Shown piece after piece: positions 25,201-60,995 of a DNA stretch of 64,000 nt (positions within the stretch are counted from its first letter, which is position 1; every line of letters starts with the position of its first letter). The notes beneath the pieces are model-generated. The model was not told where the DNA came from and searched no databases. It saw only the letters and a program-made list of their open reading frames with translations. A program made the translations under genes and the position numbers. The stretch comes from Microbotryum violaceum (taxonomy: Eukaryota), in the NCBI GenBank assembly GCA_001244265.2, contig CDLV01000009.1:1-64000 (forward strand), in the 5' to 3' direction.

Positions 25201-25231
<31 letters not shown>

Positions 25232-25955
25232 TCTTTCGAAAGCTAAAACCCATATGTTCATGTGTTGTTGACAGCGAATTCAATACCATCGACCCCGCCC
25301 CTGCCTCCCACCACTCCCCTCTCGCCTCTGGATCCAAAACCTCGACCACTACAACGCCCATCCCTGAACTTCAAGCGACCCTCAACGACAAAACTAAATC
25401 CTTATTCGAACGCTATCGAGCCATGTTCGCTTTGCGAAATGATGGAAGTAAAAAAGCTGTTTTGGCTTTAGCGACAGGTTTCGAAGATGAGAGTGCTCTT
25501 TTCCGGTACGTCGTACTTTCTTTCCTTTTCCACTCTTCTTCATGAACTGACAATCTTCTCCCTAACCACTCCCACCCCCAGCCATGAAATCGCCTACGTA
25601 TTCGGCCAATTGTCCTCCCCATACTCCGTACCTTCCCTCATCAAAGTTCTCAGCCACACAAACGAAGAAGATATGGTCCGCCACGAAGCGGCCGAAGCGT
25701 TGGGGGTATCGCGACCGAAGAATGTTTACCTATCCTCGAACAGTTCGCAAAGGATGAGAACGTACCGAGGGTCGTTAGGGAGAGTTGTGAGGTGGCTTTG
25801 GATATGGTCAGTCTTTCTTTTTTTTCGCGGGACTACCTGAAGCGGCGTTTCGAGTTCTTTCCGAGTGCTGATTTGGTCATCTTGTTTCCGGATAGTACGA
25901 GTACGAGAATTCGAACGAGTTCGTTCCCTTGCCGACGTTGGTGCAAGCTTCATAA
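24533..25955 (+). CDS. LIA1: Deoxyhypusine hydroxylase (DOHH), multi-exon
   Basis: [66 protein letters not shown] and [11 protein letters not shown] (four HE motifs). One missing G in a G-run at about 25702 is probably an assembly error. Confidence 0.93.
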
Positions 25956-28754: not shown

Positions 28755-29094
28755 ATCTACTACATGTACCCGGTGTAAGTGTACTCACTACCGACTTGGG
28801 TTTGCAAGTTATGAAACAAGAAAGCGCTATGGCCTGCATCATGTGTTCGTCTTTCCTTCTGTCCTGCTTAGTTCTCTTCTTGATTCTTTCCTTTCTTTTT
28901 TTTTTTTTTTTTTTTTTTCTTTCCTTCTTCTTTCATTTTTCTTCCTTCCCTTTTTTTTTTTCTTTTTTTTTTCCGCTTCGCCGGCAACTCCCTGGACATG
29001 TTGGCTGCCCAGAAAAGTCGAGCAAGGCGTAGGCTCGATCAGGCTCGATTAGGTTCTAGTTAGGCTCCCAAGCTCAAGCTAGCACAAGTACTAA

Positions 29095-31890: not shown

Positions 31891-31921
<31 letters not shown>

Positions 31922-39161: not shown

Positions 39162-39193
<32 letters not shown>

Positions 39194-44578: not shown

Positions 44579-45790
44579 GATGAGTGCAAACGCTACCCAA
44601 AAGGAGCTGACGATAGGCGGTCAACGTAGGTTGGGGACAGGGAGAGGTGATGAGGGCTCGAAGCTCGCTGTCGCCGTCGGAGCTTCGGAGGCCGCGCACC
44701 TCCCAGTCACCTCCCCGCACCTCCCCGAGCAGGGACGCAGCAAAAGCTCCGACTACGAGCGGCGCCATGTGGGGTTTAGTGATTTTCATTAGAGACCCGG
44801 CACATTGCTTTGATTCACTGATCTCTTCTCATTACCCTGTATCTGTAAACGTGGTCTAACCCGAAATTTGTTCACCGTACATTGGCGCTGGAAGGAGGGT
44901 GTGCCAGTGAGGAAAGGGAAGGGCGCCGAGGGAATGGATTGTTTCATGGCTGCTGCTGATCTACTTGTGGGCTTGGGAAAGTAGATAATCGACCATCAAA
45001 CATTCTATCCTCTTCGAAACGTCGACGGTAAGGTGTAGCGAAGGGGCTTGTTACCTATGACTTACCAGACGACCACTCTAGTACAATCTCACTGTCCTTC
45101 ACCGTCTCCCGTTTTTCGGACTGTTCCGCGGAGCTGCCCCATAGAATGCAGTATAAAGAGTTGGAAGGAGCGACGAGCGGTCGAGGAGGTCTGTGCGGCG
45201 TACACGCGAGTGCAAGAGGGCCTGAATAGAATTTGATAGGCCTGATCCCGCGCGTGACAAACTGGGTCTTTTCCTCACGTTTGGCTCTGCATCAAATCAG
45301 GTGTGTACTTCGCGTATTCATGCCTCAATGTGTTAAATGATTAACTCTGACGTTTGGCTCTGCATTTTGGGCTGTATCAAAGGTTGCATCACATTGCAAC
45401 AACTTTTTGCAACAGGATTGGGAGGCTTTGTTGCACATCCTCCGATACCTCAAGGGAACCCGAGACGTCAACCTTCTGTTCCGCAAGGCGGAGGGTGCTC
45501 CTCTCCTCAAGGGCTTTGTTGACGCTGATCACGGAGCGGACCCGGAGACTCGTCGAAGTGTCACAGGTTTTGTGTTCCTTTGCGCGGGTGGCGCGGTCTC
45601 GTGGATGTCCAAGCGACAGGTGCTCGTCACCGTATCCAGCACCGAGGCCGAGTACGTTGCTATTATTAGAATCTAAAGCCGAGGCACGAGATACGTTTAG
45701 TACAAGAGCCGAGGATGATAGTAAAGACAGTTAGAGAAAGAAGAGAAGCACAGAGTAGGAGCGCGCGAGGGGACTAATATCAACAACTAG

Positions 45791-46155
<365 letters not shown>

Positions 46156-49142
46156 CTAGTAACTAATTGTGTTTGGTAATAGAAGTGGGATGAAACAGCA
46201 ATATACACTCTGACACCCCCCCGTGCTGTCATACCACTGCACCTCGTAAGCCTAAATTCGTCCGATGGAAGATGAACGGCTTGGGAACCAAGGCCTTGGT
46301 GAAGATGTCGGCAAACATGTCGCCAGTGGCGATGTAGCGGACCTCAATCTCTTTCTCAGCAACCCTCTTGCAGACATAGTGTTTTGAGATGCGAACGTGA
46401 CGAGATCCCTGATGGTTGGTCGGGTGTTGTGCCAGAGCAAGCGAACCTTGGTTGTCACCATAGAGCACAACTGGACCGGGAACCGGAGCGCCGAGTTTGC
46501 TTAGGAGTTTGCTCAGGTGAATGGTGTCCCCGCTAGCGTACAAAAGAGAGAGGTATTCCGCGTTGGTAGTAGACTTGGCGACCCTGTGCTCCCGTTTGGA
46601 ACACCAAGCAATGGCAGCTCCGGACAAGATGAATGCGTAGCCCATGGTCGATTGCAAGGTTGTCAGGCAGGCTCCCCAGTTTGCATCCGAGTAGCCATGG
46701 AGCGGTTGGTTGGTGTTGCGGTAGGTGAGCCCCAAGTCCAGCGTGCCTTTGATGTAGCGGAGGACGTGCTTGATGGCTGTCCAATGCTCCGGGCCGGGTT
46801 GCTGCGAGAAGCGCGCGAGGTAGCTGACCACAAAAGCAAGGTCCGGACAAGTGCCAACTGCGGCGTACATCAACGAACCAATGGCCTGCAAGTAGCGAGT
46901 GCAATCCTCAGGGGTAGCAAACAAGTTCTCGAAATTGAGGACGACACCGGGTTGCATGGGGACGCCTGCCGGCTTGGCATTGGCAAATTGGAACCTGGCC
47001 AAGATATCTTGAAGGTAGTGTTCTTGGGAAAGTGTGATGGACCTGTTGTGCCCGCGTTTGACTTGGATGCTGAGGATGTATTTGGCAGGCCCGAGACCTT
47101 TGATACCATATGCAAGTTCCAACATGTCAAGAACCCTGTCGATCTCGGCAGTAGAGAGCCCAACCAACAGCAAGTTGTCAACATACAAGGCAATGTAATG
47201 AGAGTGCCCGTTGTGTTCGCAGCGGTAGATGCAGATGTCTGATCAGGTGGGCACGTATCCGAGGGAGCGCAAAGTCAAGTCAATCTCCGCATTCCAGATG
47301 GTGCCCGCTTGGCAAAGTCCGTAGATGGATTTGGACAGCCTGAGGATCTTGCCAGGCATGTCGATGCCTTGTGGAATGCGCATGTAGAGAGGCTTGTCAA
47401 GTTTGCCGTGGAGGTACCCCTTGTTGACGTCGGCTTGATGGACATGGTAGCCGTTGGCCGTGGCAAGGGCGATGACAGCCCAAATGGACATGAACTTGAC
47501 GATGGGGGCATAGTTCTGCTCGAAGTTGATGCCAGGGCGTTGGGCACAACCGTGGGCAACGAGACGAGCCTTGTGATCGATGATGTCCCCGTGCTGGTTG
47601 CGTTTAGTTTGGAACACCCAGCCCGGCCGTAAGAGGATCTCACCCGCAGGGAGCTCACAGGAGTCAATGACTTCAAACACCTTGTATTTGTTGAGAAGTG
47701 AATCAAATTTGTTGTGTGCCGGGCGGGCCACCCCATGTGTCCTGTTGTCCCAATCGGATGACATTGCCCCAATGGCTAGATCTCGGACAACGGATAAGTC
47801 ATGCTCCGCAAAGCCGGCTTTGGTGGACGCAAAGGCACGGAGCATGCCCTGGAAGGCGAAAATGGGTCCATCTGTAATACTCTGTAGTTACTCAAAGGCC
47901 CGATGCGCGTCTGGCCTTAGGCATTGCCGGAAAGTAGGGCCTCTCTTCCTTTCCGACCAGTTTATTCTTTGGAATACATACTCGTATCCTGTCACCTGCA
48001 AGGCCCGACGCTGGGGCCTTACATATTTTTTTTGACATCCGATACAAGAATTCGCCAAGAACACTCCGTCACCGCTTCAAACCGGCTCGACGTACACACG
48101 ACGCAGGTCGTTTGCCGCACACCCCGCACGACACTTGTCGTTTGTCATACAGAGCCGTCTCTGTTCGCCGTCCACATTACACGTCGCAAGACGTTCGCCG
48201 CACCCCGCACGACTCGCGTCGTTTGTCATACAGAGCCATCTCTGTTCGCCGTCCACATCATACGTCGCAAGACGTTCGCCGCATTGCTTACACGACTTGA
48301 TCGTTCGCCGTCACACACAACTGCTGAGGTTGTTCGCCGTTTACGCGACCGTCGTCGCTCGTCCGCCCTTTTTCTTTTCACTTCGCACGCGACCGCCACC
48401 GTCGCTCGCCGAACGCGCCCCTCCGTCGCTCGCCCGCACGGTTTCGTTTCTTTTTTTGCTTCGCACGCAATTGCCGCCACCCGCCCGCGCCCATCCGTCG
48501 CCGACGCCCCGCTTTCCAATCTGGCCCCACAAACCAGAAACAGCAAGGATCAGGGACCCCCACCAAACAAGGACGCTCCGCCGCATCTCGTACCAAAGTC
48601 GATGCCGAAGATGTCGGACCGAGCGCCCACACGACTCCACATGCCAGAGCTCAAGGCACCGTTTACGGCGGAGGACGTCATCCTCTGGCTAGGCGACTGC
48701 GAGGACGCAATCGAGGCATTCGGGATCTCAAGCGTTCCGATGAGACGTTGACGGTCGTTCAACAAATCAGGGAAGCTGGCATGAAAATGCAGGGCGAAGG
48801 GAAAATTTGGTGGAATCAGCACAGGGATGAACTGAAGGCATTGACAACATGGGATGCCTTTGCGGCTGAGGTGAGGGAACGGTTCCTGGACTCGGGCTTT
48901 GTGCTCACCGCCGAGCACGACTTCTACCGTACGCGACAAGGGTCGGATTCTTTCACTACGTACGCTGCGAAGCTAGCGAGTCGGCGCGCAACCTTGGGTA
49001 TTGGCAAGGACGGGGGAAAGTTCATCAATGACGACCAATTCAAACGACACTTGCTACATCACGCCAACGACCTACTGTATGCGCGTACCACCTCAACTGC
49101 CGGCTTTACACTCTCAACATTCACAGTGAACTTGCTCATTGG

Positions 49143-51065
49143 TGTAAGGCCCCAGCGTCGGGCCTTGCAGGTGACAGGATACGAGTATGTATTCCAAAGA
49201 ATAAACTGGTCGGAAAGGAAGAGAGGCCCTACTTTCCGGCAATGCCTAAGGCCAGACGCGCATCGGGCCTTTGAGTAACTACAGAGTATTACACTCTCCA
49301 CCACCTGAACCAAACCCTGCCTCCCTTATCTACTTCTTCTCTTCTTCATCCTCCTCTTCTTTCTCAGATCCTCCCAGCCATTCATTCTCAAATGCCTCGT
49401 CCAATTCCGAGTCACTTGAGTCGGAACCCCACGGTTGACGGTATGCCTGGTTGCCCATGAAGTTGAGTTGATCCGGGTGGTCCCCAATTGTCCCGCCTGT
49501 CGTCTTTGGGCACTCGCAAATACTATGCCCCATTTCCCGGCAGTTGAAGCAGCGACCCTCATCAATGCACTGTTGTCGGACCTCAGCTGTCAATGGTGTG
49601 CGCCTTGCCATGTTTGATTTGAGATCCCGTGGCGAGCGAGTGATACGGGAGTTGGTGACGGACACTTGACCTTTCCACTCGAGTCCCAGCGAGGAAGCGA
49701 CCGCCGTCATGTGTCCAATGAGCGAGTTCACTGTGAATGTTGAGAGTGTAAAGCCGACAGTTGAGGTGGTACGCGCATACAGTAGGTCGTTGGCGTGATG
49801 TAGCAAGTGTCGTTTGAATTGGTCGTCATTGATGAACTTTCCCCCGTCCTTGCCAATACCCAAGGTTGCGCGCCGACTCGCTAGCTTCGCAGCGTACGTA
49901 GTGAAAGAATCCGACCCTTGTCGCGTACGGTAGAAGTCGTGCTCGGCGGTGAGCACAAAGCCCGAGTCCAGGAACCGTTCCCTCACCTCAGCCGCAAAGG
50001 CATCCCATGTCGTCAATGCCTTCAGTTCATCCCTGTGCTGATTCCACCAAATTTTCCCTTCGCCCTGCATTTTCATGCCAGCTTCCCTGATTTGTTGAAC
50101 GACCGTCAACGTCTCATCGGAACGCTTGAGATCCCCGAATGCCTCGATTGCGTCCTCGCAGTCGCCTAGCCAGAGGATGACGTCCTCCGCCGTAAACGGT
50201 GCCTTGAGCTCTGGCATGTGGAGTCGTGTGGGCGCTCGGTCCGACATCTTCGGCATCGACTTTGGTACGAGATGCGGCGGAGCGTCCTTGTTTGGTGGGG
50301 TCCCTGATCCTTGCTGTTTCTGGTTTGTGGGGCCAGATTGGAAAGCGGGGCGTCGGCGACGGATGGGCGCGGGTGGGTGGCGGCGATTGCGTGCGAAGCA
50401 AAAAAAGAAACGAAACCGTGCGGGCGAGCGACGGAGGGGCGCGTTCGGCGAGCGACGGTGGCGGTCGCGTGCGAAGTGAAAAGAAAAAGGGCGGACGAGC
50501 GACGACGGTCGCGTAAACGGCGAACAACCTCAGCAGTTGTGTGTGACGGCAAACGACCAAGTCGTGTAAGCAATGCGGCGAACGTCTTGTGACGTATGAT
50601 GTGGACGGCGAACAGAGACGGCTCTGTATGACAAACGACGCGAGTCGTGCGGGGGTGGGCGAACGTCTTGCGACGTATGATGTGGACGGCGAACAGAGAT
50701 GGCTCTGTATGACAAACGACGCGAGTCGTGCGGGGGTGCGGCGAACGTCTTGCGACGTGTAATGTGGACGGCGAACAGAGACGGCTCTGTATGACAAACG
50801 ACAAGTGTCGTGCGGGGTGTGCGGCAAACGACCTGCGTCGTGTGTACGTCGAGCCGGTTTGAAGCGGTGACGGAGTGTTCTTGGCGAATTCTTGTATCGG
50901 ATGTCAAAAAAAAATGTAAGGCCCCAGCGTCGGGCCTTGCAGGTGACAGGATACGAGTATGTATTCCAAAGAATAAACTGGTCGGAAAGGAAGAGAGGCC
51001 CTACTTTCCGGCAATGCCTAAGGCCAGACGCGCATCGGGCCATTGAGTAACTACAGAGTATTACA
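49143..51065 (-). mobile_element. Gag-only non-autonomous LTR element D2 (1923 bp), inserted in inverted orientation into the gag of D1, TSD ATTGG
   Basis: LTRs 50915-51065 and 49143-49293 differ at 1 nt. ATTGG at 49138-49142 and 51066-51070. Three ~81-bp repeats in the leader. Purine-rich PPT before the 3' LTR. Confidence 0.95.
49330..50256 (-). CDS. gag: Ty3/Gypsy-type Gag (capsid-like region, CCHC knuckle, acidic tail), 308 aa
   Basis: GEGKIWW...TWDAFAAEVRERF...RQGSDSFTTY, CFNCREMGHSICEC and C-terminal DSSDSELDEAFENEWLGGSEKEEEDEEEKK*. Confidence 0.88.
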   Translation of the reverse strand: MPKMSDRAPTRLHMPELKAPFTAEDVILWLGDCEDAIEAFGDLKRSDETLTVVQQIREAGMKMQGEGKIWWNQHRDELKALTTWDAFAAEVRERFLDSGFVLTAEHDFYRTRQGSDSFTTYAAKLASRRATLGIGKDGGKFINDDQFKRHLLHHANDLLYARTTSTVGFTLSTFTVNSLIGHMTAVASSLGLEWKGQVSVTNSRITRSPRDLKSNMARRTPLTAEVRQQCIDEGRCFNCREMGHSICECPKTTGGTIGDHPDQLNFMGNQAYRQPWGSDSSDSELDEAFENEWLGGSEKEEEDEEEKK

Positions 51066-51647
51066 ATTGGACACATGACGGCGGTCGCTTCCTCGCTGGG
51101 ACTCGAGTGGAAAGGTCAAGTGTCCGTCACCAACTCCCGTATCACTCGCTCGCCACGGGATCTCAAATCAAACATGGCAAGGCGCACACCATTGACAGCT
51201 GAGGCCCGACAACAGTGCATTGATGAGGGTTGCTGCTTCAACTGCCGGGAAATGGGGCATAGTATTCGCGAGTGCCCAAAGACAACAGGCGGGACAATTG
51301 GGGACCACCCGGATCAACTCAACTTCATGGGCGACCAGGCATACCGTCAACCGTGGGGTTCCGACTCAAGTGACTCGGAATTGGATGAGGCGTTTGAGAA
51401 TGAATGGCTGGGAGGATCTGAGAAAGAAGAGGAGGATGAAGAAGAGAAGAAGTAGATAAGGGAGGCAGGGTTTGGTTCAGGTGGTGGAGAGTGTAATACT
51501 CTGTAGTTACTCAAAGGCCCAATGCGCGTCTGGCCTTAGGCATTGCCGGAAAGTAGGGCCTCTCTTCCTTTCCGACCAGTTTATTCTTTGGAATACATAC
51601 TCGTATCCTGTCACCTGCAAGGCCCGACGCTGAGGACACGGACACGC

Positions 51648-53066
51648 ATGAACAACCACAACAACAACGACACCAGCAATGCCACCCCCGGTGCTATAGC
51701 ACCTAATCGCCCTCCCGACCCCACCGGCGTCACCGTCACCGCCCAAACCAAGTCGTACTCCGCGGCCGTCTCCGCCCGTTCCCATGCGAAGACCAACGCC
51801 ACCCCGCCACCGCCACGACTGTTGCCTCCCACCCGATGATTCACAACATCGCCAACTGTGTAATCATCAAAACCCCTCCCGCGACCACCTCCGAGAAAGT
51901 GCTCTCAGCACTCGATCACCACTACCCGGCCCTTGCAGGCGCCATGCCCTGCGTCATCAAGGGACAACACGGCATCCGATTCCCTAAGGACGCCGACATC
52001 GCCGACCTGGTCGCGAATGGTCTGACCGTTGGAAAGACCTTGTGCCAAGTCGAGAAACTATTCTCAGCCACTACTGGTCTAATTCAATGCACCCTTTCTG
52101 GCTTCTTCTCCGATGTAGAGGGCCTCCGCCTCTTTGATGAGCAGATTGCCGAGTACGGCAAGGTCCTCCTTCGCCGCACTCATTACATTGGCAAGACTAG
52201 GCACATCTCTGGGGTGTATGACTTTGTTCTTGCCCTCGGGGACCCAAACAAATTGCCTCCTGCATCCATCTCCATTGAACGCGACGGCGTGACCGAGCGT
52301 ATCCCGCTCAGGATCACCGGTGGCATGCGCCACTGTGTTTTCTGCCGTTCCGCGGCCCATGTCCGTAAGGACTGCCCCGTCGCCCCGGCGTGCAAGTCGT
52401 GCGCAAGCACCTCGCACGCCAGCCAGCATTGCCCGGGCCGCCGCTTCGCGTCGAGACCCCAGGGCACTCCCGAGTCACGTGCCGCGCAAGCCTCCACCAT
52501 GACCAAAGCCCCCCGGCCTCCAAGTCGATCCCTGCGCCACCCGCGCCCGACCGCTCGTTGAAGACCAAAAAACGTCGAGTGAACCCAGACCAGGACCTGG
52601 CTGCCCAGCCCCAAGATCCATCTAACAGGGCTCAGCCTGAACCCCTGTCGGAGACTCCTCGCCCCGGTTTCTCCTTCAATTTCCCTCCCAACTCCGCCCC
52701 CCTGCCCGCCTCCAACCAGTCAACTGCCCCTCCCCTCGTTGAAAAATCCTCCGAGTCCCCCAGCTCGGAGACGACCCCTTCGCCCCAAGCCCTGCTCCGG
52801 CCACACCAACGCCAAAGACGATCATCACTCGTTCCCAGTCAATTGCTGCCCTCTCCACACCAGCCACTCGTGAAGACCCGCCCACTCCGCCTGCCCCCGA
52901 AGCCTCCGAGCCGAACCCCCGGCCCTCCTCGCCGTTGCCCTCAGCGATCAAAGCCCGACCCGATGCCACCGACGCCGACGAAGATGCCGAAGAAGAAGGC
53001 AAAGACCAAGAAGCACCCCCCGAGGACGTGGACGACGTTATGGAGCAAGACGATGAGCACAATTAA
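51648..53066 (+). CDS. LINE ORF1 (two CCHC zinc knuckles), with 1-nt frame breaks in C-runs
   Basis: MNNHNNND...KSYSAAV, CVFCRSAAHVRKDC and CKSCASTSHASQHC. The acidic end DVMEQDDEHN* overlaps the ORF2 start by 14 nt. Confidence 0.75.
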
Positions 53067-56000
53067 GATCCCAAACGTGTCTTTTGTTGCTGCCAACGTG
53101 CAGTCAATCAATGAAGATCGTAAGCGTGCCTCTCTTTTCTCCAATCTCCGCTCCCATAACGCCGATGTCTTTCTCCTGAGCGAAACGGGCCGACCTTCCC
53201 CGGAAAGGGTTGCCCAGTGGACTCAGGAGTGCCAAGACTTAAAGCTCTCCGCTCTTTTCACTCCTCTCAACAACACCGCTATACTCTGGAAGAGCGACTC
53301 CGTGGTCATCACTATTGATCCCGAGTCACCTCCCAACACTCTTCGTGCCTCTTTCGCTTTCCCCGACCGAGTCACCGACGCCACCTTTCGCGTGGGAGAC
53401 TCAAAAATCCGGGTTGTATCAATATACGCGCCTTCCTCCGACAAGCCAGACAAAAAGCGTTTCCTCTCACATCTCAGCACAGCCCTCCGACAAGTCGTGC
53501 GCGACGAGCCCTCGCCGCCTGCGCTCTTAGTCGGGGGGGACTGGAATTGTGTTGAGTCCCAACCCCTCGATTCGGAGAACCAAAACGGGACGAATTATGG
53601 GGGCCAGGAGATGCGCGACCTTGCCACGGCCAACAACCTCTTTGATGTCTATCGGCTTCACCATCCCAAAGGACGAGCCACGACGAATCGCTCAGCGCCC
53701 GGCACGTGCCGTCGCCTTGACCGCATCTATGTCTCGCCTGATTGGGTCGACCTCTTCCACGACCACAAAATCTGGGCTCCTGTCCTCAAATCGACGCACT
53801 CGATGGTGGCGGCGCGGTTCCAAGTGCCGGGCGCAATCGACATCGGTCCGGGTAAATTCAAGTTGGGTTTGCACGTGATCGAGGGCGACGCGACCTGCGA
53901 ATACCTCACTTCCACTGTCCAGGCCCTCTACAATGAAGCCCTCCTCCAGACGCCCGACGACCCATCAGCAGCTTGGACGTCCACCAAACAACACTTGCTG
54001 CCCGAGCTTCAGGCTCTGGCTCGCACACTTGCCCGCTTCCGACGTGGAGGATCGGAGGAGGCGAAGGCAGATCACTCGCGCTACGGCGCGGCGCTGCGGT
54101 CCCGCATTGATCCTTCCCTCGCGGGCCCATCTTCCATCTTCATCCGCCTACGCAAAGTGCGCGCATCCGACCTCATCCCTTCCCTCTCGGTCGACGATGT
54201 CGTCCACTCCGACCCCGACTCGATGCTTGGAGCCGCTAGCAAGTACTTCGAAGGGGTCTACGAGGATCGCGCTATCGATGACGCCGCCTTGGAGAAGATT
54301 ATCGACGGTCTCGCCTCGACTCGCCTATCCCCTGCCGATTCGGACAAGCTCGAAGGAGCGTACCCCCTAGAGGAGATAACAAAGGCACAAGAGGCGTGTA
54401 AGTCGAACTCCTCGCCTGGACCCGACGGTCTCCCGGTCGAGTTTTACCGCGCAACGTGGACAGCCACAGGCCCCATCCTCCGCGACGTCATCAACTCGAT
54501 CCCCACCGACGACGCCAGTTCTCGAACGTCGGCCCGCCACACTGCCCACATCCACCTCATCCACAAGCGCGGCGAGAGGGATCGGCTGGTGAACAAACGC
54601 CCCATATCACTCATCAACGCTGATGAACGCATCATCTCCCAAGCCCACAACCAGCGCCTTGCCCCTCTGCTCGAGACCCTGATCGGCTCGACCCAGCGCG
54701 GTTTCGTTCCGAACCGCTGGATTGGCACGAACATCGCCGAGGTGCAGTGTCTCATGGATCCTGGGCTCCCGGGTTCAGAGCCGGTGTCCGGTCTGCTCGC
54801 AGTGATGGACTTCGAGAAGGCTTACGACCGTCTTTCCCACACCTACATCGATGCAGTCCTCAGCGCCGTTGGCCTTGGCCCGAAAGCCTGCCAATGGTAC
54901 CGAGCGACCTATACAAACCAATCCGCCTCAATCTACCTCAACGGATGGCTCTCGGCCGCGTTCGATATCCTCTCGGGAGTTCGACAAGGCGACCCGCTGG
55001 CTCCGTCGCTCTTCGTTCTCGCAATTGAGGGCTTCGCCGTACAGTTGCGGTCACAAGTCAAGGGCATCGCGAGCCCGGGACTCCCAACCATACGAGAACT
55101 TCTCTTTGCCGACGATGCCTGCTGTGCTCTCCACGACACCTCGGACCTCGACCACCTCAATCGGGCGATCGAGCTGTACGAGCGGGCAAGTGCCAGCAAG
55201 CTCAGCAACGCCAAATCTTTCCTCTACCCCCTCGGGTCATTCAGGGACCGTCCGATCCCTTCACACCTCGGGTCCTGGCGTCTCAGCGACTCGCAGTTTC
55301 GTTACCTGGGAGTGCAGGTTGGGGTGGACATCGCCGAGGATGCGGGCTGGGAGGAGGTCAAGTCCGCGACCGTCGCCCGGATACGATCCATCCCAATGTA
55401 CGACCTTCCGTACGCAGCGAAATGTTCGATAATCAATATCTACTGCTACACGAAGATTCTCTACCATAATCGTTTCATCCCAGCTTCCAAGAGCGTCGTC
55501 AAGGAGATCGAGGACGCGGTCATGATCGCTATCCACGGTCGAGCCTCGGACGGATCTCAGAAACCCCCGAAGGTCTCTCGGCTGCGCCTCTGCACCCCTC
55601 TCGACCACGGCGGCTTTGGCTTGATTGACTTACCTCGGCGCCTCGCGGTCGATCACGCCAAGTGGGTCTTTCATCTTCGGGACCCGGACGGCTGCTTCAT
55701 TCGGCACCTCTTCGACATCCGCACTCGCCTTCAGGCGGCGAACGAACGCACCCCCTTTACCTTGCCCAAATCAGGCCCCAACCCACATCGTCGCTCGTGG
55801 GTCTGGATCTGGTGGGCCTACTTTTGCCACCCTCCTCCACAGTGGGAACGCGCAGTGAGGAAGACGAAGGCCCTGCTCCCTCCACGATGGATCCGCTATT
55901 TCGAAGCCTGGGATTTGGTGACAACGCTGAACCCCCCCGAACTTTCCAAGAGCCCGGATCTGGAGCGGTGGGCAACACACGTCCTCTACTTCCCAGCAGG

Positions 56001-56625
56001 CCACGGAATCCGACTCTCGGTGAACCCGACGCTTTTCCGAGGACCCGATGGCGAGGTGATGACTCCGTCTTCGTTTGTGAACGCGTCCAAACGCCACCAA
56101 GCCTTCCTCTACCCTCCTATCCTCCCTCTCGGTCATCAGAGGGTTTTCTGTCTCCCCGAGCAACGCTGGAATGCCTGGTGGAAGGCGCTACGCAAGATTC
56201 GCAGGGTTCATTCGGACGCCGAAGACACGGCCCACCTCCTCTCCCTAGGTTCACTTCATCCAGGTAGCCAAATCGCTTCTCCAAATAGCCGTTCTCTCCA
56301 CAATCGATCTACCGCATGTGTCATGTGCCTGTCGGAGGCTCCGGAGACCCTGGCACACCTTGCGGTCGGTTGCCCGTTTGCCCGCCGCCTCTGGTCTGCG
56401 CTCACTCCTATCCCACACCCCGACTTTGTTCAGTTCGTGTGCCCGGTCGTTTCTCGCTCGGAACGCCGACCCGTCGAGCTGCGTCTACTCTTCTTCCACG
56501 CGATCTGGAAGCTCTCTCGTCGCCGTCGATTTTCGTCGGATCCTCTGGAGCCGATCGCCGAAACGGCATTTGAGGAGCTCCGCGCGTCCATCCAGGAGTC
56601 CAAGGGACGACTGGTTTCGCTGTAA
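53053..56625 (+). CDS. LINE ORF2: APE endonuclease, reverse transcriptase and C-terminal zinc finger (about 1190 aa, uninterrupted)
   Basis: AANVQSIN, LSET, VGGDWN, RRLDRIYVS, SPGPDGL, RPISLIN, QRGFVPNR, DFEKAYDR, GVRQGDPLAP, LFADD and CVMC...ETLAHLAVGC. Confidence 0.95.
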   Translation: MSTIKIPNVSFVAANVQSINEDRKRASLFSNLRSHNADVFLLSETGRPSPERVAQWTQECQDLKLSALFTPLNNTAILWKSDSVVITIDPESPPNTLRASFAFPDRVTDATFRVGDSKIRVVSIYAPSSDKPDKKRFLSHLSTALRQVVRDEPSPPALLVGGDWNCVESQPLDSENQNGTNYGGQEMRDLATANNLFDVYRLHHPKGRATTNRSAPGTCRRLDRIYVSPDWVDLFHDHKIWAPVLKSTHSMVAARFQVPGAIDIGPGKFKLGLHVIEGDATCEYLTSTVQALYNEALLQTPDDPSAAWTSTKQHLLPELQALARTLARFRRGGSEEAKADHSRYGAALRSRIDPSLAGPSSIFIRLRKVRASDLIPSLSVDDVVHSDPDSMLGAASKYFEGVYEDRAIDDAALEKIIDGLASTRLSPADSDKLEGAYPLEEITKAQEACKSNSSPGPDGLPVEFYRATWTATGPILRDVINSIPTDDASSRTSARHTAHIHLIHKRGERDRLVNKRPISLINADERIISQAHNQRLAPLLETLIGSTQRGFVPNRWIGTNIAEVQCLMDPGLPGSEPVSGLLAVMDFEKAYDRLSHTYIDAVLSAVGLGPKACQWYRATYTNQSASIYLNGWLSAAFDILSGVRQGDPLAPSLFVLAIEGFAVQLRSQVKGIASPGLPTIRELLFADDACCALHDTSDLDHLNRAIELYERASASKLSNAKSFLYPLGSFRDRPIPSHLGSWRLSDSQFRYLGVQVGVDIAEDAGWEEVKSATVARIRSIPMYDLPYAAKCSIINIYCYTKILYHNRFIPASKSVVKEIEDAVMIAIHGRASDGSQKPPKVSRLRLCTPLDHGGFGLIDLPRRLAVDHAKWVFHLRDPDGCFIRHLFDIRTRLQAANERTPFTLPKSGPNPHRRSWVWIWWAYFCHPPPQWERAVRKTKALLPPRWIRYFEAWDLVTTLNPPELSKSPDLERWATHVLYFPAGHGIRLSVNPTLFRGPDGEVMTPSSFVNASKRHQAFLYPPILPLGHQRVFCLPEQRWNAWWKALRKIRRVHSDAEDTAHLLSLGSLHPGSQIASPNSRSLHNRSTACVMCLSEAPETLAHLAVGCPFARRLWSALTPIPHPDFVQFVCPVVSRSERRPVELRLLFFHAIWKLSRRRRFSSDPLEPIAETAFEELRASIQESKGRLVSL

Positions 56626-57394
56626 CCGCCTAAGGGGGTTTTAGTGGGTATGGTTGATTTTGTTCCAAGGTCAACGAGTCCCACACTACTGGCCTCGCCA
56701 GTGTGCTTAACTGCATTCCCTCCGTCTTTTCCGAGGATTTTTAGGCATTAATATAGATATGCTGTTAATGAAATCTATTAGATAAAAAAAAGGGGCCTTA
56801 CACCATCAGGTCCGCCAACAAGGTCTTCCCGCGTGATGAGGGTGGGAACGAGTTGGCGGCAAGTCCGGGGGCCAGCAATGATGTTCCGAGCGTCGATTTC
56901 ACCGTACTTCCCTGGATTGGGACCAACCTTGGCAACATCGCCGTACTCCCAAGTGGGTTTGACTTTGGCGAGTGGAGTTGGTTCTGGTGGTGCTGGTTCC
57001 GAAGGACGCTGCGGCAGGTGGATCAAAGAAGTGGCATCGTCGTTGAGCAAAGGCGGCTGGGTGGGTTTGACGAGCACGGGAGGTAACGGTGTTGCCGGAG
57101 CGTCGGCAGGTGGAGGACGGGGATAGAAACCCGGAACGGAAGGCGGTGTGACGCGGGCGGGGACGGCAACAAAGGGGAACTCGGTTTCAAGGAACGTCAC
57201 ATTCCGGCTCAAACTCACGTGCATTGAGGAGGGATCGAGAAGGCGCCAGGCTTTTGCGTGTCAATTGTAACCCACAAAGACCAGCGGAATCCCTTTTGGG
57301 TCAAGTTTGTCCCAACAATGAGCCGGCACAGTGGCCCAGGCGTGACAACCAAATGCTCGAAGCGCTCCCACGGTCGGGGGGGCGCCTGACCAGC

Positions 57395-59683: not shown

Positions 59684-60995
59684 TATTAGAACCTAAAGCC
59701 GAGGCACGAGATACGTTTAGTACGAGAGCCGAGGATGATAGTAAAGACAGTTGGAGAAAGAAGAGAAGCGCAGAGTAGGAGCGCGCGAGGCAAGCAATAG
59801 CCGCGCGAGGCGACTAATATCAACAACTAGTAACTAATCGTGATCGGTAATAGAAGTGGGATGAAACAGCAATATACACTCTGACATGCTATGTCGTTTG
59901 CTGCGCGCGAGGGCATCTGGCTTCGTCGCCTCCTTGCCGAGCTCGGCTTTGCCCAGAGCGAACCGACAAAGCTTCATGGCGACAACCAGTCGGCAATCCA
60001 GCTCGCCAAACACCCAGCCTTCCATGCTCATACTAAGCACATCGGCATCCACTTTCACTTCATCCGAGACCACATTGCCGAGGGTACGATCGAGATGGTC
60101 TGGATTCCCACGAACACGATGGCGGCGGATGTCTTGACCAAAGGACTCGGGTCGCGGAAGCACTGGGATTTTGTACACGCGATGGGTTTGGTAGATGCAT
60201 CGCGTGAAGGGGCGAGTTGGAAGGAGCGACGAGCGGTCGAGGAGGTCTGTGCGGCGTACACGCGAGTGCAAGAGGGCCTGAATAGAATTTGATAGGCCTG
60301 ATCCCGCGCGTGACAAACTGGGTCTTTTCCTCACGTTTGGCTCTGCATCAAATCAGGTGTGTGCTTCGCGTATTCATGCCTCAATGTGTTAAATGATTAA
60401 CTCTGACGTTTGGCTCTGCATCGGATCAGTCCATTGTTCAACTTAAAGGACACTCGACTACGGCACTCTTGATCGCTCATTGTCACCTCAATAAAGCAAT
60501 GCCGCCCTCATCCATGCTTGCAATTGTTGCTGCCGTTGCGCTTGAGTAGGATATGGATGGATGAACGGCGTAAAAAGGCTAGTTGGGAAAACTCTGCCGA
60601 GCCAGACAATGATCCTACTGACCACCTCTCTATCTACGCAACAAAGTACTCGAAACTCACTCAAAAACACTCAAACACAGGGAAGAGTTGTGGAGGGGAC
60701 CCGCGGGGTGGAAGGTTGGGATCGAAGGCTCGACTGGAACGCCGACGGCTTGGCTAGCGAATCGCAGACGGACCGAAAGGGGGCAAGGGAGGGGGCGAGA
60801 CTGCTGAGCGAGAGCGTAGACCGACACTACTCACGTCGATCAGGTGGACTGCGGAGTAGGGAGTGTCCTATCTTGATTCGGCCGGGCAAGCAAAGGTCGT
60901 TGTTCAACCAAGACAGAGTGAGACGAGCGGGACAGCAGGAACTGTTTGGTGTGAGCTGCGGCTTGCTTAGTACCGCAGCTGCGACTGCGCGATAC

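Follow-up and report, generated by a model that had tools for sequence, protein, structure and literature searches.

Two nested copies of a small gag-only LTR element, D1 and D2, were found in the window (the whole 64-kb stretch of DNA analysed here), and both carry an oligo-T tract directly after the 5' LTR, TA plus T8 in D1 and T9 in D2. The location of this tract at the site of a tRNA primer suggests that DNA copying starts from a poly(A) tail, probably that of the element itself. We regard it as quite possible, if somewhat short of an even chance, that an oligo(A) or poly(A) 3' end primes minus-strand synthesis on the U-tract of the RNA. The start of minus-strand synthesis is a defining trait of every retroelement lineage. 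To our knowledge, only tRNA-based priming and self-priming of the Tf1 type are established for LTR elements, and a search of open-access papers found no proposal of a poly(A) primer for such an element.

D2 is a complete gag-only LTR element of 1923 bp (49143-51065, minus strand) with TG..CA LTRs of 151 bp and a polypurine tract. It consists of the following parts:

50915-51065, minus strand: 5' LTR, 151 bp (blastn and repeat search)
50914-50906, minus strand: oligo-T tract T9, preceded by ccttaca and followed by gacatcc (read directly)
minus strand, following the tract: leader, which contains three 81-nt repeats
49333-50256, minus strand: intact gag (Pfam Retrotrans_gag, PF03732 / pfam03732, E 4.2e-06)
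49306-49294, minus strand: polypurine tract aggtggtggagag, adjoining the 3' LTR
49143-49293, minus strand: 3' LTR, 151 bp

The element is flanked by a 5-bp target duplication, ATTGG (49138-42 and 51066-70), and its own two LTRs differ at 1 of 151 positions. A zinc knuckle (CX2CX4HX4C) is visible in the gag translation, and 210 relatives of gag were found at E up to 0.001. A pol region (protease, reverse transcriptase, RNase H, integrase) is absent from the 1923 bp of D2, which leave no room for it, and D2 is therefore non-autonomous. Gag is the sole gypsy-type domain found in the 64-kb window. Features of the Ty3/gypsy type are nevertheless present, namely direct TG..CA LTRs (TGTAA..TTACA), 5-bp duplications, the polypurine tract and gag with its zinc knuckle.

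D1 is an older copy, which was split by the insertion of D2 and additionally by a LINE. Its parts are as follows:

47873-48023, plus strand: 5' LTR, 151 bp, TGTAA...TTACA, its last letters being ggggccttaca, one of four LTR copies (blastn and repeat search)
48024-48033, plus strand: oligo-T tract, with ta at 48024-25 and T8 at 48026-33, followed by gacatccgatac
48602-49142, plus strand: N-terminal part of gag, broken by a 1-nt deletion near 48722 and truncated at 49142 by D2 (open reading frames)
51071-51491, plus strand: C-terminal part of gag with the zinc knuckle, ending in the polypurine tract aggtggtggagag at 51479-51491
51492-51632, plus strand: first 141 nt of the 3' LTR, interrupted within the hairpin loop by the LINE
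51633-56791, plus strand: LINE-type non-LTR retrotransposon inside the 3' LTR, with a terminal A8 at 56784-91
56792-56802, plus strand: last 11 nt of the 3' LTR, ggggccttaca, after the A8 of the LINE

The deletion in gag is supported by breaks in the repeat arms at 48722-24, and the LINE has an open reading frame (52369-56625) that encodes Exo_endo_phos and RVT_1. The target duplication of D1 is CCATC (47868-72 and 56803-07). The 5' LTR of D1 and the 3' LTR of D2 show 0 differences over 151 positions. The LTR end next to the T-tract was fixed independently of the tract, by the four 151-nt LTR copies and by the duplications ATTGG and CCATC. Judged from these sequences, both copies are young gag-only derivatives of an LTR retrotransposon of the chromovirus type (Ty3/gypsy) that were mobilised in trans, the lineage of these pol-less elements being placed via a gag relative. 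This protein, P0012, carries gag fused to a Tf2-1-type SH3 domain and a chromodomain, and the lineage is therefore taken as chromoviral. Non-autonomous LTR elements such as TRIM, LARD and gag-only elements are described as having LTRs, a polypurine tract and a target duplication, lacking pol and being mobilised in trans (PMC10886601). Unlike D1 and D2, the elements presented there have tRNA-type sites that match those of their autonomous partners.

The primer site is functional, as the LTR pairs are near-identical (0-1 of 151 differences) and D2 entered D1 with a 5-bp duplication. A dead site, with copies that multiplied through DNA duplication or are relics in decay, and with a T-run that arose as a mutational accident, is hardly credible. 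D1 is disrupted by the frameshift and by the D2 and LINE insertions, as this explanation would have it, but the separate 5-bp target duplication of each copy and the similarity of the LTR pairs contradict it, and the gag of D2 is intact. Moreover, the element was found in 20 of the 24 listed sequencing runs, which come from 8 studies, and in run X1 the leader with T9 reaches a depth of about 700 against about 760-1020 for gag. The T-tract is therefore the norm of the family.

Both tracts, TA-T8 at 48024-48033 and T9 at 50906-50914 on the minus strand, had been pointed out in the first-pass annotation and were read directly. Runs of at least 8 A or T occur 12 times on both strands of the 64-kb window; a T-run 0-2 nt from a given LTR end is therefore expected by chance in about 3 of 10,000 cases. 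As had been claimed, a tRNA-type site is absent, with no TGG within 48024-48075. A search of both strands of 47800-48650 against Rfam at E up to 10 gave no tRNA-like match, and the tRNA scan of the 64-kb window found 0 tRNA genes. In the same Rfam search, only two matches were obtained, sR33 and RsmY, both at chance level, and none pointed to an LTR derived from a small RNA. Priming by a half-tRNA or an anticodon loop, as in copia, Ty5 and fungal Helenus elements, would need 8-9 A's at the end of the primer, and no canonical tRNA segment would be expected to offer these. An A-run able to pair with the T-tract is also absent from the element, the longest being 3 in the LTR and never above 4 on the element strand, which bears out the earlier remark that the LTR has no self-priming A-run. 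In LTR elements the first templated base adjoins the primer. The U8-9 sits exactly at the position of the minus-strand primer, and the likeliest primer is therefore the 3'-OH of an oligo(A) or poly(A) end. Two other roles of the tract were considered and rejected. A U-rich element 3' of the poly(A) site would have to recur in the context of the 3' LTR, where the run is absent, and a fragment of the U-tract that itself primes on the tail would not allow the LTRs to be rebuilt.

The tract could also be something other than a primer site, serving as a spacer or being bound by a host or Gag factor with a liking for oligo(U), while the true primer, a host RNA or an internal fragment of a tRNA, pairs further downstream. 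We consider this rather unlikely, at roughly one chance in four. The tRNA check covered only the 64-kb window with its 0 tRNA genes, anticodon-loop primers have been reported for fungal LTR elements (PMC10886601), and the stable length of T9 would fit such a role. However, a primer further downstream would put the T-run into U5 and so require trimming of the right end, the region 47800-48650 lacks any tRNA-like match, and the 5 nt that follow the tract change together with the LTR and not with an outside RNA.

The T-tract is framed by the following pairing segments, given for D1:

47997-48023, plus strand: hairpin at the LTR end, arms 47997-48006 and 48014-48023, 9 of 10 pairs, core AAGGCCC/GGGCCTT
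47990-47994, plus strand: TGTCA, LTR positions 118-122, pairing with leader TGACA at 48033-48037 and also the candidate poly(A) site
48033-48061, plus strand: leader segments pairing with the LTR, TGACA 48033-37, GATAC 48041-45 and CCAAGAA 48055-61, with marginal statistics

The minimum-energy fold reproduces the hairpin, which had been described before, as well as the three LTR-leader stems. For these stems the earlier description was right as to their presence, with tgtca at 47990-47994, while their statistical standing is marginal: the fold has a z-score of -2.09, and 8 of 200 shuffles fold equally well. The duplex between LTR positions 81-122 and the leader was matched by 29 of 1000 shuffles and that between the whole LTR and the leader by 321 of 500. 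Without covariation, the stems alone are thus only marginally better than chance, or not above it.

Covariation was seen in one diverged relative, a copy from another organism in run X18, which differs at 6 of 195 and 3 of 65 positions on two unlinked contigs. T9/A9 is unchanged in this copy, and the helix adjoining the tract, TGTCA (LTR) with TGACA (leader), has become CGTTA with TAACG, a change of two compensatory pairs. The tract and the covarying stem, which the first-pass annotation had proposed to look for in autonomous relatives, are found in this one diverged copy. In run X1, contig 8 is identical through T9. An internal loop between LTR and leader is present in both lineages, 1x3 in the window copies and 1x2 in X18. 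This comparison of the tract covers four runs, all as contigs and none of them certainly RNA, and two lineages of one family.

The stem next to the tract allows the poly(A) idea to be sharpened: if polyadenylation follows TGTCA, the site would be complementary to the element's own 3' end. Self-priming from the 3' end is the most economical version of the proposal. The transcript would be polyadenylated after UGUCA (LTR positions 118-122), and its 3' end, ...GUAUCCUGUCA-A(n), would pair with U8-UGACA-UCC-GAUAC, located at the 5' end of either the same or a co-packaged RNA. The tail would be used at the end of the duplex or trimmed to it, the reverse transcriptase would copy the 29-nt U5 and then R, and the usual two strand transfers would rebuild the LTRs. 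TGTCA ends in CA (47993-94), 16 nt 3' of AATACA (47973-78), and a CT-rich block lies upstream of it at 47940-54. We take AATACA/TACATA to be a candidate poly(A) signal before this CA and the CT-rich block to be a possible region of transcription start.

The duplex of the R-end plus A9 with the site has 13 contiguous pairs and a predicted energy of -21.9 kcal/mol, in contrast to -4.0 kcal/mol for the A-tail alone (A15; A9:U9). What speaks for poly(A) priming is that no other primer matches (no TGG, an LTR-leader complement of 6 nt at most, no A-run above 4, no tRNA-like Rfam match). Against it, A9:U9 alone is predicted to be a weak duplex. With the R-end as anchor, a tail of normal length would end in an unpaired 3' flap, so that trimming or a short tail must be assumed. 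The presence of T9 in both lineages also fits a faithfully copied template no less well than a copied tail of variable length. Of the reading put forward in the first-pass annotation, the anatomy and the absence of alternative matches held up; the poly(A) priming itself we infer from the sequence, as we do which molecule is the primer, where the RNA is polyadenylated, whether the tail is trimmed and whether priming acts in cis or in trans.

Another alternative is a Tf1-like mechanism with the 5' part of the RNA as its own primer, in which GUAUCCUGUCA (47984-47994, 11 nt) anneals to UGACAUCCGAUAC just 3' of the U-tract. A putative RNase H cleavage after UGUCA would make the primer, the U-tract would be copied first and hence formally be the end of U5, and the right end of the cDNA would lose its T-run before or during integration. 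The earlier statement that priming here is unlike tRNA and Tf1 priming was correct in that a tRNA-type site and a Tf1-type complement of at least 10 nt are both absent, but it overlooked this variant, with its T-run copied and then trimmed. We judge it improbable, at about one chance in five. Several observations agree with it. The lineage is chromoviral, judging from the SH3 domain and chromodomain of P0012, and self-priming is given as a common feature of Tf1/sushi elements (PMC10085805) and as predicted for most plant elements of the Tcn1 clade (PMC6317226). The hairpin lies between two pairing segments like the U5-IR of Tf1, the segment of 11 nt equals that of Tf1 in length, and the constant length of T9 suits templated copying. 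In addition, about half of the Tf1 cDNA is described as having a single-stranded PBS at the 3' end, so that extra 3' bases occur there (PMC11042837).

However, the complementarity amounts to only 5+5 bp around an internal loop. No LTR-leader complement of at least 7 nt exists; the longest exact one has 6 nt, a length reached or exceeded in 717 of 1000 shuffles, and matches of 5-6 nt are thus at chance level. The working criterion in the methods of PMC6317226 asks for a complement of 10 bp or more whose start lies 0-5 bp from the LTR, and the 6-nt complement falls short of it. The internal loop is kept in both lineages (1x3 and 1x2), although copying of the primer into the plus strand would be expected to erase it. 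Tf1-like priming also leaves the pure T homopolymer unexplained and places the outer stem upstream of its proposed 5' end.

The proposed poly(A) priming shares several traits with the Tf1/sushi group (Tf1, Tf2, Tj1, Tosmo). Like D1 and D2, as placed via P0012, these elements belong to the chromovirus lineage and lack a tRNA site, they have a hairpin at the LTR end and pairing of LTR and leader around the primer position, and their primer is, as proposed here, a part of the element's own RNA. In Tf1 the first 11 nt pair perfectly with a site abutting the LTR, and three duplexes form a 'pretzel' (PMC10085805). In D1 and D2, in contrast, the site is a T-run, the LTR offers a nested complement of 5+5 bp, and priming is proposed from the 3' and not the 5' end. 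In a comparison with the 'pretzel', the hairpin is present and the remaining stems are nested and not pretzel-like (fold z-score -2.09).

In target-primed reverse transcription of LINEs and SINEs, pairing of an A-tail with oligo-T starts the cDNA. The poly(A) proposal for D1 and D2 resembles it in this pairing, but the roles are reversed: in target-primed reverse transcription a T-run in the DNA gives the 3'-OH and the tail is the template, and there are neither LTRs nor strand transfers. For Ty3, the 3' end of the genomic RNA is reported to take part in the initiation complex of the minus strand (PMC5371799). Unlike in the present proposal, the primer there is tRNAiMet and the 3' partner is U3 and not a tail. 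SM-Tcn1 is described as having neither a tRNA site nor a self-primer, with a mechanism called 'unclear', and as having a conserved thymine-rich sequence between 5' LTR and gag (Novikova et al. 2010, PMC2864245). Compared by this description, it is like D1 and D2 in the T-rich stretch after the 5' LTR, the lack of a recognisable primer site and the gag of pfam03732, whereas it is an autonomous plant element of 5.7 kb with 440-bp LTRs. Priming by the element's own poly(A) 3' end may be common to the Tcn1 clade of fungi and non-seed plants.

In its general form the proposal is that a chromovirus-type LTR lineage has swapped the tRNA primer for its own polyadenylated 3' end, the PBS being complementary to the 3'-terminal bases of R together with the poly(A) tail, so that the genome closes on itself or on a partner RNA. 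We put this forward tentatively, with about one chance in three or slightly better. If true, it would be a fourth mode of LTR-retroelement priming beside tRNA 3' ends, tRNA fragments and Tf1-type 5' self-priming, self-priming could shift from the 5' to the 3' end of the RNA, and detection of PBS by tRNA matching would miss such elements. The model of priming by the element's own tail predicts that polyadenylation occurs at LTR positions 121-122, that oligo(A) is attached to strong-stop cDNA, and that the bases preceding the poly(A) site covary with those following the T-run. The small, very young and high-copy element is a concrete model in which such sharp predictions can be tested cheaply.

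An autonomous partner was not found in the window, which holds one copia element and the LINE besides host genes, for example an importin, and gag had no match among longer proteins at E up to 0.001. Three long, gag-containing proteins (P0013, P0014, P0152) were rejected as chimeric gene models with copia or LINE parts and not gag-pol of the D1/D2 family. Metagenome scans gave 599 pattern matches with the gag alignment and 66 with the integrase part of P0012, and the search for DNA of relatives gave 284 matches in genome contigs and 22 in viral contigs; in each case 0 were confirmed. Contig 24 of run X20, guessed to be RNA, ends at 49173, which is LTR position 121 and one base before the proposed poly(A) site; it has no A-tail, the copies differ among themselves at this place, and no weight was given to it. 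The pattern GGCCTTACANNTTTTTTT occurs at 11 loci in viral contigs, which we guess to be terminator-like hairpins in phage DNA.

Two copies of one gag-only LTR element family, D1 and D2, the second nested in the first, carry an oligo(T) tract (the T-tract) where a primer-binding site would be expected. The features concerned are:

49143-51065, minus strand: D2, complete LTR element of 1923 bp
47873-48023, plus strand: 5' LTR of D1
51492-51632 and 56792-56802, plus strand: 3' LTR of D1, in two pieces, with a LINE-type element inserted in its hairpin loop
51633-56791: the LINE-type element that splits this hairpin loop, 3' end A8

The D2 LTRs (151 bp, starting with TGTAA and ending with TTACA) differ at 1 of 151 positions. 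The polypurine tract aggtggtggagag adjoins the 3' LTR, the gag of 308 codons is intact with a zinc knuckle, and the 5-bp duplication ATTGG lies on either side. D2 is inserted in the gag of D1, an older copy of its family, which also has a 1-nt deletion in this gene. D1 itself is bordered on both sides by CCATC and lies in pol of a copia element. Its 5' LTR is identical to the 3' LTR of D2, therefore both insertions are very recent. The target duplications and the LTR identity contradict the view that the T-tract marks a dead site.

Directly after the 5' LTR, D1 contains TA and T8 (48024-48033) and D2 contains T9 (50914-50906, minus strand), followed in both copies by GACATCCGATACAAGAATTCGCCAAGAA. 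TGG is absent from the 50 nt after the 5' LTR. Since the window contains just 12 A or T runs of at least 8 nt, a T-run at exactly the LTR end is not chance. The terminal hairpin and the three stems that the first-pass annotation had described between LTR and leader (the segment before gag) are present and were reproduced by the minimum-energy fold, in which the T-tract is unpaired. The fold has a z-score of -2.09, and 8 of 200 shuffles fold equally well. For the duplex of the leader with the R-end, the LTR segment ending in TGTCA, 29 of 1000 shuffles were equally good; for the leader with the whole LTR it was 321 of 500. Taken alone, the stems are weak evidence.

In LTR reverse transcription the primer must anneal beside the terminal base of U5. 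Here the missing TGG rules out a tRNA 3' end. Tf1-type self-primers are recognized by a published working criterion, an LTR complement of 10 bp or more that begins 0-5 bp downstream of the LTR (accessible text of PMC6317226); here the longest exact complement between LTR and leader is 6 nt, too short for such a primer, and 717 of 1000 shuffles attain this length. A-runs do not exceed 4 nt on the element strand and 3 nt in the LTR, and a poly(A) tail is therefore the sole A-tract that the RNA can carry. TGTCA ends in CA, lies 16 nt downstream of AATACA/TACATA and has a CT-rich block upstream; we take these to be a candidate poly(A) site and a possible start site, respectively. A15 alone pairs weakly with the T-tract (-4.0 kcal/mol). 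A hypothetical RNA end of GUAUCCUGUCA plus A's would form 13 contiguous pairs with U8-UGACA and, including further stems, reach -21.9 kcal/mol.

The oligo(T) observation of the first-pass annotation is confirmed, and its proposal of poly(A)-primed reverse transcription is partly supported: TGG, a Tf1-type complement and an internal A-run are all missing, which leaves poly(A) as the candidate primer. The present analysis narrows the proposal to 3' self-priming, a model open to testing, in which an RNA ending in GUAUCCUGUCA and oligo/poly(A) would pair with U8-UGACA and prime reverse transcription. U3 would then comprise about 84 nt, R about 38 nt and U5 29 nt, and a short tail, or one trimmed at the duplex end, would be required. 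Tf1 RNase H reportedly cuts an RNA duplex, making the primer. We regard oligo/poly(A) priming as a serious possibility that falls somewhat short of probable; if it is correct, these elements would use a new form of self-primed reverse transcription. In a less probable, Tf1-like variant, the 11 nt of GUAUCCUGUCA would anneal downstream of the T-run, which would be copied and later removed; this variant is conceivable since a single-stranded PBS is present at the 3' end of about half of Tf1 cDNA (accessible text of PMC11042837). However, its pairing amounts to just 5+5 bp with an internal loop kept in both lineages, and it leaves the pure T homopolymer unexplained. Alternatively, the T-tract could bind a factor, with some other primer being used.

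The element was found in 20 of 24 listed public sequencing runs (8 studies). Four runs (X1, X17, X18 and X20) were compared with D2, and the T-tract was covered in X1 and X18. A contig of X1 spanning LTR end, T9 and leader is identical to D2. Its T9-leader depth of about 700 compares with about 760-1020 for gag and about 4000 for the LTR end, therefore T9 is the family norm. In X18, from another organism, a contig shows 6 differences in 195 positions with the nine A/T unchanged. The leader reads T9-AACG-CC-GATAC and, on a second contig that has no physical link to the first, the LTR has CGTTA in place of TGTCA. Across these two contigs, the 5-bp helix adjoining the T-run therefore differs by two compensatory changes, U-A to C-G and C-G to U-A. 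X1 also has these LTR variants, at 5-10% of LTR depth, but lacks the leader variant.

A similar arrangement was described for SM-Tcn1, a chromovirus of the Tcn1 clade. In the accessible text of Novikova et al. (PMC2864245), no tRNA site or self-primer was identified, a conserved thymine-rich stretch follows the 5' LTR like T8/T9 here, and the priming mechanism is called unclear. For most plant Tcn1-clade elements self-priming was predicted by Neumann et al., and Ty3 uses a 5'-3' bipartite site (accessible portions of PMC6317226 and PMC5371799, respectively). In the open-access literature searched, no paper was found to propose that poly(A) primes an LTR element.

Relatives of gag numbered 210 at E up to 0.001, the closest named ones in Microbotryum silenes-dioicae and M. 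lychnidis-dioicae and remoter ones in Coprinopsis and short metagenome contigs. One protein (P0012) joins gag to a Tf2-1-type SH3 and a chromodomain, and the lineage is therefore chromoviral. Other long matches are chimeric gene models that include parts of copia or LINE elements, and were rejected as gag-pol of the family. Scans of metagenome, genome and viral contigs confirmed no DNA of more distant or autonomous relatives. M. silenes-dioicae has eight or more nearly identical copies of a second gag-only family (P0009, P0153-P0159; 312 aa, with 36-38% identity to D2 gag), so gag-only derivatives seem common in these genomes. A gag-only element of the D1/D2 protein family lies beside a copia SH3-to-RT stretch in three independent cases, the M. 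silenes-dioicae gene models P0013 and P0152 and the window (47243-47887 / 56781-57260), which may reflect the density of the nest alone or an insertion preference.

The leader contains tandem 81-nt units, two in D1 (48120-48281) and three in D2 (50577-50820). Some copies in run X17 skip 163-188 nt there, so the repeat number varies among element copies. The main ORF of the LINE-type element (endonuclease and RVT_1) is open over 1418 codons, from one stop codon to the next; a second, upstream ORF (51707-52558) is without Pfam match, and about 1 nt (G) is duplicated at the insertion junction. In the host copia element (minus strand), the terminal repeats are 208 nt long (45158-45365 and 60214-60421) and lack a plain CA end beside an obvious tRNA site; their outer 5-nt flanks differ, giving no matching target duplication. 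A or T homopolymers of 23-29 nt occur at 25204-25232, 28896-28972, 31895-31921 and 39162-39190, in that half of the window which bears genes.
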